Virus record (IMG/VR): IMGVR_UViG_3300014691_000037
Length of the DNA stretch: 5,230 bases
Direction: 5' to 3' (one strand)
Origin: a virus
Lineage: Duplodnaviria > Heunggongvirae > Uroviricota > Caudoviricetes
The notes beneath the pieces are model-generated. The model was not told the DNA's origin. It saw nothing but the letters and a program-made list of their open reading frames with translations, and searched no databases. Below are positions 2,800-5,230 of this stretch, one piece after another. The position numbers and the translations under genes were made by a program. Every line of letters starts with the position of its first letter. The stretch's first letter is position 1.

Positions 2800-2828
2800 T
2801 TGACACTTCGGTGGCACAGGGCTAGAAC
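2800..2828 (+). promoter_or_regulatory. Candidate sigma70 promoter for the cargo gene: TTGACA, 17-bp spacer, TAGAAC
   Basis: Read directly: perfect -35 hexamer at 2800..2805 and a 4/6 -10 match at 2823..2828, in the AT-rich region upstream of the 583-aa ORF. Would give a ~200-nt leader. Confidence 0.3.
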
Positions 2829-3035
2829 TACTATGGTTTGCAGCCTTGTGCCAAGAGCGGACAGTTTGAAAAATAACGGTATTATCCAGCGACAGGTACA
2901 TAGTAGTATCTGTCTTTATAAAATTTTCAGCCTTGCAATGATTTTATGGACAAAAGAAGGTTAGACATAAACCATCCCAAATGGATATGATTACTGTGTT
3001 AGTAAACACTCATGATTATTACGGAGGGCTATTAA

Positions 3036-4787
3036 GTGCTTGATTATTTATCAAAGCTTCCTTTACCGGCTGAGCAAATACCACAGGGTTTAAAGGACCT
3101 ATTATTTGTTGAAGACAATTCTAACCCCCAGCGAGAAGTTACTGTAACCCATCATTACGAAAGAAATAAGTATCAAGATGACTATGATTACACTCATATG
3201 ATCATGGCCGTAGTTCCTGAGAATGATGTTGCAAATCTAAGTGTGTTACGTGAATCCCGTGACGGTGTCGTCACATTTTCCACTCAGGACTGTACAGAGA
3301 AAGGTGGAGCTTGGGGTACAGATATATCTATCTCCGGTTATGGGTATATTGTAGCTTCTTGGGGTTCAAGTCTTCACTACTCCTTTTTGTTGGCCGAAGA
3401 TGTCTGGATGAAACTGGGATTAAAACCAAGGCTCATAGGGGATGATGAACAAAAAGTAATTTTTGATGAGGTTTCTTCGCCATCATATGGAGTCGTGCAA
3501 GGCGATGTCTCAAGAGAATATCATTTCAAAAGCAACAAAGATATTAAATGGACAATGAGGAATGATTACCTCAGAAAATATTTATGGATGAAAGGTTGTG
3601 TTGGAGTAAAAGTTTTTTTCTTCGAAGCCTATATCGAACGAACTAAAGAGGTACTCGGACTCTTATCAGGTTCTAATCACTTTAGAATCGAACTTCCTTG
3701 GATTGAATTTGAAATAGTTGACCATACAGATAGGATATTGCTGCAAGCATGGGGAACTGTTCAATCTGTTCAGCCAGAGCTTTGCTCTGAATTAGATGTC
3801 AACACATTAGTATGGCCCGGTCACAAGTCACCGATAACAATGTCGGGAGCTACCGATTATCGTAGTGGCGAATACGTATATGTTGATGATGCTTTTCTTA
3901 CTAAATATGAAAAAGATAAGACATACGAAGCCATTCCATTTTTTTATGGCAATCACTATCATGCAGATCCTAGCTATGGCGGGCAATGGGCATTTAGAGG
4001 CTGTACTAGAGTCGGTAGGAACTTAGTGAAAATATATTTTTATGATCTTTACCAAGGAGTTCCAGAAAAGGAAATATATCATGTGTTTGATTATGCGAAA
4101 GACCAAAGCCTTATTGATACTAATTCATTAGATAATGAGCATATTGTTTCTAAGACTTTTAGATTTGCTAGAGAACTAACTGAGCTTAATGGAAATCTAG
4201 TGTCTCTAGGTAGAGTTTTAGATGTTCCCCTATCGAGTTCTGATATTTTTGAATACAACAGAGACGAACTAGATGAAGAAGGCATTAGAAATTATCCTGT
4301 ACTGCAAAAGCTTGCTCATGTAGCCTCAATCGATATGCAAGAGCAAGATTTCCTAGCTAGATGCAAGACTATAAACGAGATCATTACTAAAATTAAAACT
4401 GGTTCATTGAAGAAATTAAGTATTGCTATGGGGGTGAAGGCTGAGGATATTGAAAGATTGCAAACGCTAAAATTATTGCAAGGAATATTAAACCTTACAA
4501 GTGTTATTAATGAGCAAAATGAAGAGCAATCCGCGCTAAAACATGCCAATGAACTTGCAAAGTATAATTCACCCAATCATACATTAGCAGCTCTATTTAT
4601 AAATAATGACTTGAGGAACGCTGAAGCTCATGAAGCAGTCAATAAATCCATTGAACATCTAGCTAGTCTTGGTTTTGATAGCGCAACTTTGGCATCCGGT
4701 TATAGCCATGCTTTAGATTTTATATTTGATCAAATTATTGAGAGCTTGAGGAGTTTTAATTCGACTTTAAATGAAGTCCTGCACTAA
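3036..4787 (+). CDS. Large hypothetical protein (583 aa) on an AT-rich foreign insert; candidate single-gene phage-defence/abortive-infection protein with a C-terminal HEPN-like R-N-x-x-x-H motif
   Basis: GTG 3036 lies 6 nt after GGAGGG (3024..3029); stop TAA 4785..4787. G+C about one third by hand count (19/60 at 4081..4140) against ~60% in the phage backbone (36/60 at 1021..1080). Aromatic-rich N-terminal ~400 aa not recognised; helical C-terminal ~160 aa contains LRNAEAHE (residues 526-533). Confidence 0.85.
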   Translation: MLDYLSKLPLPAEQIPQGLKDLLFVEDNSNPQREVTVTHHYERNKYQDDYDYTHMIMAVVPENDVANLSVLRESRDGVVTFSTQDCTEKGGAWGTDISISGYGYIVASWGSSLHYSFLLAEDVWMKLGLKPRLIGDDEQKVIFDEVSSPSYGVVQGDVSREYHFKSNKDIKWTMRNDYLRKYLWMKGCVGVKVFFFEAYIERTKEVLGLLSGSNHFRIELPWIEFEIVDHTDRILLQAWGTVQSVQPELCSELDVNTLVWPGHKSPITMSGATDYRSGEYVYVDDAFLTKYEKDKTYEAIPFFYGNHYHADPSYGGQWAFRGCTRVGRNLVKIYFYDLYQGVPEKEIYHVFDYAKDQSLIDTNSLDNEHIVSKTFRFARELTELNGNLVSLGRVLDVPLSSSDIFEYNRDELDEEGIRNYPVLQKLAHVASIDMQEQDFLARCKTINEIITKIKTGSLKKLSIAMGVKAEDIERLQTLKLLQGILNLTSVINEQNEEQSALKHANELAKYNSPNHTLAALFINNDLRNAEAHEAVNKSIEHLASLGFDSATLASGYSHALDFIFDQIIESLRSFNSTLNEVLH

Positions 4788-4818
4788 TGTTAAAGTGCAA
4801 TATAAGATTTAGATGATG

Positions 4819-4873
4819 CCTTAAGGTTTTTTATTCAGTTAATACTTATTGGTTCTATTAATAAGTAATTTTT
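4819..4873 (+). terminator. Weak terminator-like elements after the cargo gene: CCTTAAGG followed by TTTTTT, then an AT-rich 8-bp stem followed by ATTTTTAT
   Basis: Read directly: palindrome 4819..4826 followed by T6 (4827..4832); TACTTATT (4843..4850) pairs with AATAAGTA (4860..4867), followed by a T-run at 4869..4873. The stems are short and AT-rich, so termination efficiency is doubtful. Confidence 0.2.
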
Positions 4874-5150
4874 ATGTCTTCTGAAATATTTGTGCCGATA
4901 ACAGGGTCATTAGTAATATATTCAATAGTTACGGGCTAATTGCCAGTGTTCGCCTTTCGCTCAAAGCGGACTAGAAGGTTAGCTTACGTCGGACTTGGCG
5001 TATTTAAAGAAGAGTTGGTGGTGACTGGTTGTTGTGTTCCATTTCTACAGAACAAAATCACAGAAACTATACCCAATAGTTGTATTGAAGCACTGACGAG
5101 ACAGCCTCATATTTATCAGGGCAGGTGTATATCCAATACAGGAGGTTGTC

Positions 5151-5230
5151 GTGCTGGTCCTCAAATGTGCGCTAGCTATTGCGGCTGTAATGGCAATTTA
5201 TTGTCTTGCTGTTGTTCTTACGGATCGCCT
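5151..5230 (+). CDS. 5'-truncated-by-window small hydrophobic protein, possible Hok/Gef-type type I toxin (N-terminal 26 codons visible)
   Basis: GTG 5151 lies 5 nt after AGGAGG (5140..5145). The visible peptide VLVLKCALAIAAVMAIYCLAVVLTDR is one transmembrane-like helix ending in charged residues, as in Hok-family toxins. The ORF runs off the window edge, so it is absent from the ORF track. Confidence 0.35.
   Translation, partial: MLVLKCALAIAAVMAIYCLAVVLTDR

Follow-up and report, generated by a model that had tools for sequence, protein, structure and literature searches.

A prophage-borne mobile cassette encodes a lone 583-residue protein with a predicted HEPN ribonuclease domain, a candidate single-protein antiphage defence

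The DNA analysed here is a stretch of 5,230 nucleotides (nt) from the IMG/VR virus record IMGVR_UViG_3300014691_000037 (Caudoviricetes), which we call the window at its full length. Between positions 3036 and 4787 it carries a gene for a 583-residue protein that a first-pass annotation, made from the letters alone, had singled out as foreign cargo in the early region of a prophage and as a candidate for an undescribed defence system. We find that the gene occupies a small mobile cassette by itself, and that the C-terminal part of its product is predicted to be a HEPN ribonuclease (RNase) domain.

The gene, its cassette and the prophage slot

The cassette, its signals and its borders are as follows, in coordinates of the window.

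2813..2864, + strand: left junction, hairpin GGCACAGGGCT-N17-AGCCTTGTGCC and then AAGAGCGGACAG, common to the cassette and to prophages with other cargo
2843..4970, + strand: mobile cassette of ~2.13 kb with its own promoter, one open reading frame (ORF), the remains of a terminator, and conserved motifs at its ends (nucleotide identity across genera; G+C 0.364)
2962..2991, + strand: promoter candidate TAGACA-N18-TATGAT, 10/12 to the sigma-70 consensus
3023..3028, + strand: Shine-Dalgarno sequence GGAGGG, read from the sequence, 7 nt 5' of the start codon
3036..4787, + strand: ORF of 583 amino acids (aa), candidate single-protein defence gene (205 close and 426 representative homologues, nearly all of 575-600 aa)
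4804..4835, + strand: degraded remnant of the cassette's intrinsic terminator (fold comparison with related copies)
4940..4979, + strand: right junction, TTGCCAGTGTTCGCCTTTCGCTCAAAGCGGAC, a hairpin of the GTCCGCTTT/AAAGCGGAC type and then TAGAAGG (sequence comparison)

ORF calling returns exactly one large frame over 3036..4787, GTG start and stop codon included, in agreement with the first-pass annotation, and the good ribosome-binding site reported there is the GGAGGG element. An ATG occupies the aligned start position in the Kluyvera, Yersinia and Serratia homologues, which corroborates the start of the 583-aa frame. The ORF is compositionally foreign to the prophage backbone, as had been claimed, with a G+C content of 0.373 against 0.472 in positions 1-2863 of the window. 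A recount of 4081..4140 bears out the earlier hand count of 19/60 G+C exactly; the flanking phage genes, which had been put at ~60% G+C, measure 46-50%, so that the contrast is real and smaller than first stated.

Comparison of the window with related prophages and genomes confirms that the segment is an insert. Homology of the backbone to Escherichia coli 55989 and M16807 (96-99%) stops at 2863 and restarts at 4955. Copies of the segment 2843-4970 are present in Yokenella, Scandinavium, Erwinia and a proBA-adjacent island (~93% nucleotide identity) and in Kluyvera, Yersinia and a P2-like prophage of Serratia (81-85%); every copy outside E. coli sits in a different genomic context. Apart from the 583-aa ORF the cassette holds no conserved ORF of at least 20 aa outside the main frame, and an antitoxin ORF within it was rejected on this ground. 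Both hexamers of the promoter candidate are invariant in seven cassette copies (81-93% identity); the overall score of the scan that found it was not above shuffles. Another ~180 nt of non-coding sequence 3' of the stop codon is conserved, and Rfam returned no structured RNA in the window.

Related cassettes carry a perfect hairpin of 10-12 bp followed by a U-run after the stop codon, folding at -15.9 and -14.9 kcal/mol (z -3.4 and -2.8), whereas the same site in the window copy folds at -4.6 kcal/mol (z +1.3). With this terminator degraded, transcription may run on from the cassette towards the hokD region. In the related copies the hairpin reads AAGCTTTAGA/TCTAAAGCTT plus the U-run (L003 11769-11800, L024 ~11769-11800; such handles denote individual loci in our survey).

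The left junction consists of a hairpin followed by AAGAGCGGACA, in its full form GGCACAGGG...CCTTGTGCC-AAGAGCGGACA. In other genera the cassette has this hairpin and motif at its left end, and in E. coli 55989 and M16807 they mark the left edge of the DUF5677 and DUF4209 cargos. The right junction has the form GTCCGCTTT-TCGCTC-AAAGCGGAC, then TAGAAGG; its 5' arm TGCCAATGTCCGCT is common to the cassette in other genera, and from the 3' arm onward it is common to prophages with other cargo. Cassette and backbone homology overlap at both borders, by ~20 nt at the left one and by 16 nt at the right one. Given that both junctions also flank the cargos of sister prophages, cargo exchange seems to happen at these short conserved junctions. 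They are common to three cargos of E. coli Qin-type prophages (L001, the E. coli 55989 locus, at ~5875-5925 and ~7165-7200; L002 at ~5885-5935 and ~7990-8030), and the left GAGCGGAC and the right AAGCGGAC make up a short direct repeat. An integron attC site at the right junction was considered by eye only and rejected, as GTTAGCT does not fit the GTTRRRY core site.

The slot thus bounded, between a DUF977 gene and hokD, holds different cargo in different strains. E. coli 55989 carries a DUF5677 protein there. In M16807 and the ATCC 25922 group the slot encodes, on the opposite strand, a protein of 595 aa with DUF7380 and DUF4209, and in the Qin prophage of K-12 it holds relB-relE immediately upstream of hokD. 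The DUF4209 slot-mate of strain M16807 matches the PADLOC single-gene defence candidate PDC-S39 (E 2e-102). Anantharaman et al. 2013 (PMC3710099) count DUF4209 among the HEPN families, and DUF5677 was chosen for antiphage testing in a recent preprint. The 583-aa gene is a rare allele of this slot: it is in 0 of 5,426 complete E. coli genomes, although 4,674 of these match the window elsewhere, for the most part in the prophage backbone. The exact protein is recorded in E. coli draft assemblies, labelled 'hypothetical protein'.

The genes upstream of the cassette match Qin-type lambdoid E. coli prophages at 96-99% identity (megablast).

204-611, - strand: DicA/cI-like helix-turn-helix repressor
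689-919: P22-Cro/DicC-like gene
from 903: YdaT-family gene, interrupted by 17 N at 1351-1367
ending at 2305: O-like replication initiator
2346-2768: DUF977 gene, directly upstream of the cassette

The first-pass annotation had placed the gene between the replication module and a hok-like locus. An O-like initiator does end at 2305, but the immediate upstream neighbour is the DUF977 gene. On the other side, the matching E. coli 55989 locus puts hok/sok proper outside the window, with the Rfam sok match (L001 7508-7682, E 7e-26) starting ~50 nt past the point that corresponds to the window end. The window ends inside an unannotated hydrophobic ORF of 29 aa (MLVLKCALAIAAVMAIYCLAVVLTDRLSD; start at 5151; L001 counterpart 7376-7465) that is preceded by a strong AGGAGG Shine-Dalgarno sequence at 5140-5145, adjoins the hokD/sok element on its upstream side and, from its sequence, could be a small membrane peptide. 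The 17 N at 1351-1367 stand for ~82 nt of E. coli 55989 sequence (L001 4351-4432); they cut the YdaT-family gene short at its 3' end and probably also remove the true start of the O-like gene, whose RefSeq start lies ~50 nt upstream of the start called here (1391).

Predicted architecture of the 583-aa protein

We built an AlphaFold2 model from a 40-sequence alignment (predicted local distance difference test, pLDDT, 84) and counted invariant positions in an alignment of 81 sequences with identities down to ~20%. The model falls into three parts, a beta-rich N-terminal region to ~345, a helical linker and an all-helical C-terminal part, which together with sequence conservation give the following divisions.

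3036..3332, + strand: residues 1-99, most variable N-terminal segment (14% identity to a distant branch, no column at 90% or above)
3333..4070, + strand: residues 100-345, conserved beta-rich domain, proposed to be sensory or regulatory (invariant L129, W260, D285, L288, W318 and R325)
4071..4307, + strand: residues 346-424, helical linker region (AlphaFold2 secondary structure; no column at 90% or above)
4308..4784, + strand: residues 425-583, all-helical domain of HEPN fold, predicted RNase effector
4614..4631, + strand: predicted catalytic HEPN motif R527-N-A-E-A-H532 (Rx4H), translating to RNAEAH

Only nine columns of the alignment are invariant, the six of the beta-rich domain together with R442, R527 and H532; D144, R132, E292 and R328 are conserved at 94% or above. 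Distant members align only from about residue 100, and pLDDT drops below 50 at residues 77-99. For residues 100-345 we found no attributable PDB fold or sequence match. A PD-(D/E)xK reading of D285...E292-K293 was rejected, as K293 is not conserved in the distant branch.

On the strength of the model and the motif, we predict a HEPN ribonuclease domain in the C-terminal ~160 residues, with R527 and H532 as its catalytic residues. The Rx4-6H motif that marks the HEPN superfamily is present, and its arginine and histidine are invariant in all 81 sequences. In the AlphaFold2 model it lies at a helix end inside the all-helical domain, as it does in HEPN domains. A polar residue (N, D or H) usually follows the arginine of this motif (PMC3710099); here it is N528, conserved in the close branch only. 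Matches of HEPN type include MtlR/YggD and the MNT-associated structures 1wwp, 5yep, 7ae2, 8xdj, 1ylm, 2hsb and 1jog, besides HepS, Cas13b, Csm6 and the C-terminal domain of KNTase, with Sacsin, AbiA and LsoA lower in the list. The first-pass annotation was right that the protein has no Walker A motif, but its negative on nuclease motifs, which named no obvious PD-(D/E)xK motif, does not stand, the invariant R527-H532 pair having been overlooked. With this motif recognised, the protein is no longer a complete unknown and becomes a new family in a well-known class of defence effectors.

Distribution of the family and its likely function

Profile and structure searches support the earlier claim that the family is undescribed. 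The 583-aa protein has no Pfam, NCBIfam, PADLOC or single-sequence PDB match, and nothing significant in PHROGs (E 0.24-0.45 at best). Profiles of the family against PDB sequences gave designed armadillo or coiled-coil noise only, and the full-length model returned nothing from the PDB at E <= 1e-3 with Foldseek. When all 81 members were scanned with Pfam and PADLOC, only marginal matches in single members emerged (MtlR at E 0.017 and Cas13d at E 0.014, one member each). A profile of the C-terminal domain found same-family fragments only in a set of 5.8 billion proteins, with no bridge to another architecture, and six accessions from the protein's cluster are cited by no paper in the library searched.

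The family itself is sizeable and uniform. A protein search yielded 205 full-length relatives of 575-600 aa, every one named 'hypothetical' and devoid of Pfam domains, and an exhaustive profile search of 1.84 billion representatives returned 426 at E <= 1e-3; their architecture is stable, and no obvious fusions occur among the 150 listed. The cluster at more than 90% identity spans seven enterobacterial genera (Escherichia, Klebsiella, Raoultella, Citrobacter, Kosakonia, Erwinia and Providencia). Relatives occur in ~120 of 185,579 species genomes (~0.06%), among them Alpha-, Beta- and Gammaproteobacteria, Nitrospirales, Acidobacteriota and a cyanobacterium, and on 14 IMG/VR contigs. The distribution is accessory, mobile and patchy across bacteria.

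We surveyed neighbour clusters over 80 loci and the two nearest neighbours over ~73. The most widespread neighbour cluster is found in 7 of the 80; a conserved partner gene was accordingly rejected, and the gene behaves as a single-gene system. Direct neighbours include Gabija GajB at three loci (E 8e-175) with AAA_15/AAA_21 proteins, Shedu SduA at three loci (E 2e-137), R subunits of type I restriction systems and D12 methyltransferases. In Serratia, the homologue occupies the interval from gpA to the portal gene in a P2-like prophage, an interval defined as a hotspot by Rousset et al., and its neighbour there encodes a GmrSD_N domain. In Enterobacter, a P4-like satellite at proA carries a homologue at its cargo end; a Shewanella homologue is in an island with a reverse transcriptase plus SLATT pair, HNH nucleases and AAA_15/21 proteins, and a Pandoraea homologue is in a transposon-rich locus. 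Judged qualitatively, the family is located in defence islands and mobile-element hotspots. Directly upstream of the Enterobacter homologue is a gene of 168 aa with a weak Pfam MtlR match (L018/L019/L020 9277-9783); since MtlR belongs to the HEPN superfamily, its product may be a small HEPN-like protein.

One recurrent neighbour proved to be a relative. Cluster c3 (~570-590 aa; for example L046:8161-9912, - strand) is found beside a family member, in tandem or divergent, at about six loci (L041, L046, L050, L104, L031 and L105), and has no Pfam or PADLOC match. It is a remote paralogue that aligns full-length and colinearly (hhalign 98.3%, E 2e-14, 12% identity), its Rx5H motif falling on R527 and H532; with these positions kept, a sister family of the same architecture exists. 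The c3 proteins may be heteromeric partners or independent defence genes. Two further unannotated clusters recur directly upstream on the same strand: c4, of ~574 aa, with a mid-protein RSKYVH (Rx4H), in six loci, and c6, of ~1077 aa, in five (listed loci for the two: L055, L069, L072, L077, L078 and L079, for example L077:8242-9963, + strand; and L068/L071 2352-5582). By hhalign neither is related to the 583-aa family, and PADLOC matches neither.

We propose, with a probability of about 0.6, that the ORF is a single-protein abortive-infection defence against phages, residing in a cargo hotspot of Qin-type prophages on a self-contained cassette that supplies its promoter. The defence role, which the first-pass annotation had put forward as inference, gains support from the P2 hotspot, the P4-like satellite and the Gabija, Shedu and type I restriction-modification neighbours, from the PDC-S39, DUF5677 and relBE occupants of the slot in other strains, and from the predicted HEPN domain. 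The abortive-infection reading follows from analogy with the characterised single-protein HEPN defences HepS, ApeA and DARNA. What the analysis shows directly is the HEPN fold of the model and its motif, the cassette with its conserved promoter, the solo status of the gene and its place in defence hotspots and islands. In the mechanism that we infer, from RNase activity and its substrate to sensing, oligomerisation and defence, the N-terminal ~345 residues would form a sensory or regulatory part that holds the RNase off in uninfected cells. An infection cue, which could be a phage-derived protein, nucleic acid or small molecule, would release it; the HEPN domains of at least two protomers would then form composite active sites and cut cellular RNA independently of metal, most likely at tRNA anticodon loops as HepS, ApeA, DARNA and PrrC do. 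Translation would halt and phage replication would fail.

If this proposal is correct, a widespread family (~426 representatives at 50% identity, plus the sister family) would join the class of HepS, ApeA and DARNA. The family is at present invisible to PADLOC v2.0.0 and Pfam, and annotation would improve for genes now called 'hypothetical' in Escherichia, Klebsiella, Citrobacter, Serratia, Yersinia, Vibrio, Pseudomonas and others. The sensor region, having no known relative, could expose a novel mode of infection sensing. The proposal would also mark out, between DUF977 and hokD in Qin-type prophages, a defence hotspot that can be mined like those of P2 and P4; its cargo is, according to strain, the 583-aa protein, PDC-S39, a DUF5677 protein or RelE, an RNase, together with the antitoxin RelB. 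A bolder extension holds that an unseen N-terminal fold senses a new infection signal and that cargo is swapped at the junctions across unrelated types of element; we regard it as unlikely. Were it true, lambdoid prophages, P2-like prophages, satellites and chromosomal islands would have a dedicated site for swapping defence genes in common.

Several points weigh against the proposed defence role. The RNase, toxicity and phage-defence roles are predictions from computation. The enrichment of defence genes among neighbours is qualitative and carries no formal statistic, and by tblastn the gene is in 0 of 50,697 sequenced phage records. The HEPN assignment rests on motif, fold and topology, because no sequence profile ties the domain to a HEPN family: Pfam, PDB-sequence and hhalign comparisons gave no significant similarity to any established one. 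The Cas13b and Csm6 matches are to multi-domain proteins and need not involve their HEPN domains. Finally, the invariant polar residues D285 and R325 of the N-terminal region, with the nearly invariant D144, R132, E292 and R328, could constitute a second active site and not a sensor; a ligand pocket is the other reading.

The alternative that survives best is that the protein is a conflict or addiction toxin, serving element stabilisation, competition with mobile elements or plasmids, or a stress response, and held in check by an RNA or peptide antitoxin in cis. The equivalent slot of K-12 Qin does hold the relBE toxin-antitoxin pair adjoining hokD, and the conserved ~180-nt 3' flank could encode an RNA regulator as in AbiF, whose type of RNA antitoxin is known from literature cited in the DARNA preprint. 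Against it stand the cassette's want of a conserved small ORF, the absence of a partner gene across the 80 loci and of any Rfam match in the window, the predominance of antiphage systems among the neighbours, and a conserved N-terminal region of 345 aa that exceeds what a toxin needs and resembles that of sensor-effector defence proteins. We consider this alternative unlikely; it also overlaps the abortive-infection proposal, because the boundary between abortive infection and toxin-antitoxin systems is not sharp.

The N-terminal polar residues lend themselves to a different division of labour, in which the beta-rich region is the effector or a second enzyme and the HEPN-like domain mainly mediates oligomerisation, binds RNA or nucleotides, or regulates. 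Of the nine invariant columns, six fall within 129-325; D144, R132, E292 and R328 are nearly as constant, and MtlR-type HEPN domains are non-catalytic. Yet HEPN branches that lack activity typically lose the Rx4-6H motif (PMC3710099), whereas R527 and H532 are absolutely invariant here, and the N-terminal region matches no nuclease, NTPase or other enzyme by motif, profile or fold, while the match to Avs3 may fall in any domain of that protein; such an arrangement seems to us rather improbable. Still poorer odds attach to a role in the prophage life cycle, such as host RNA turnover in lytic growth or control of lysogeny, with no part in defence. The gene does lie in the early-right region in the orientation of the replication genes, and the terminator after it is degraded in the window copy; but the identical cassette is found in non-phage islands and chromosomal defence islands, the gene is absent from the phage records and from the complete E. 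coli genomes, most of which match other parts of the window, and unrelated cargo fills the slot in sister prophages, where a life-cycle function would not be so dispensable and portable. We find it very improbable that the gene encodes an ordinary MtlR-like protein of cellular RNA processing or regulation, transferred horizontally by chance, given its patchy presence in ~0.06% of species, the AT-rich foreign cassette, its consistent location in mobile elements or defence islands and the intact predicted catalytic motif.

Comparison with known systems

The proposed single-protein defence has its closest analogue in ApeA. Both are single proteins of similar size (Ec2ApeA runs to about residue 583) on mobile elements and have no partner gene; both have a C-terminal HEPN RNase domain with insertions, predicted in our case, and the closest structural homologues of ApeA, the HepT toxins 5YEP and 7AE8, are also among the best matches here (bioRxiv 10.64898/2026.01.26.701840). 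According to the same study, the N-terminal region of ApeA is of unknown homology and its C-terminal HEPN domain is activated by a ligand; the trigger is 5'-phosphorylated deoxydinucleotides, the protein forms decameric or dodecameric rings and tRNA cleavage has been demonstrated. ApeA differs in being predominantly alpha-helical throughout, a three-domain monomer of catenin-like N-terminal, PafA-like Mid and split HEPN domains, whereas the N-terminal half of the 583-aa protein is beta-rich (~34-334 in the AlphaFold2 model). The Pfam models HEPN_Apea and ApeA_NTD1 match none of the 81 members significantly (E up to 0.5-1). The mechanism of ApeA, moreover, has been shown by experiment, and the 583-aa protein is known from sequence and model.

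HepS is likewise a lone prophage-borne HEPN protein with an Rx4-6H motif and no partner or inhibitor gene, and like the 583-aa gene it sits downstream of lambdoid replication genes, in Gifsy-1, a common site for accessory genes (PMC13043305). It is inactive by default and directly senses the siphovirus tail-tip protein J (PMC13043305). At 218 residues (PDB 9oik) it is essentially a HEPN domain alone, whereas the 583-aa protein has ~425 extra N-terminal residues and no sequence similarity to the small stand-alone HEPN protein STM14_3211.

PDC-S39/DUF4209 resembles the 583-aa protein in its slot between DUF977 and hokD, its length of 595 aa, its standing as a single-gene defence candidate and its HEPN motif, which has an equivalent relative position, DLRNQLAH at ~545-552 against DLRNAEAH at 525-532. 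It differs in lying on the opposite strand, in its N-terminal DUF7380 and in having its own Pfam and PADLOC models. The PDC-S39, DUF4209 and DUF7380 models match neither the window protein nor its 81 relatives; hhalign aligns the 14-residue motif alone with the DUF4209 slot-mate, at a probability of 0.2%, and finds no homology beyond that motif with the DUF5677 slot-mate.

DARNA (PD-T7-3), another single-protein HEPN abortive-infection system, has its sensor in a domain apart; this tRNA anticodon nuclease stays off until it senses single-stranded DNA bound by SSB (bioRxiv 10.64898/2026.02.22.705581). Its domain order is reversed, with an N-terminal HEPN domain and a C-terminal Pds5-like helical sensor in 456 aa, and the 583-aa protein has no match in PADLOC v2.0.0, hence none to any PD-T7-3 model included there. 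HepT (5yep, 7ae2, 8xdj) differs as a minimal toxin of ~130-170 aa with a cognate MNT antitoxin; there is no nucleotidyltransferase among the 25 commonest Pfam families of our neighbours. MtlR/YggD differs as a minimal protein and a non-catalytic regulator. By the tests run, then, the protein does not belong to ApeA, HepS, PDC-S39/DUF4209, DARNA or HepT/MntA, although it appears to work similarly, and it is a new family of a known kind, the one-protein HEPN defences.

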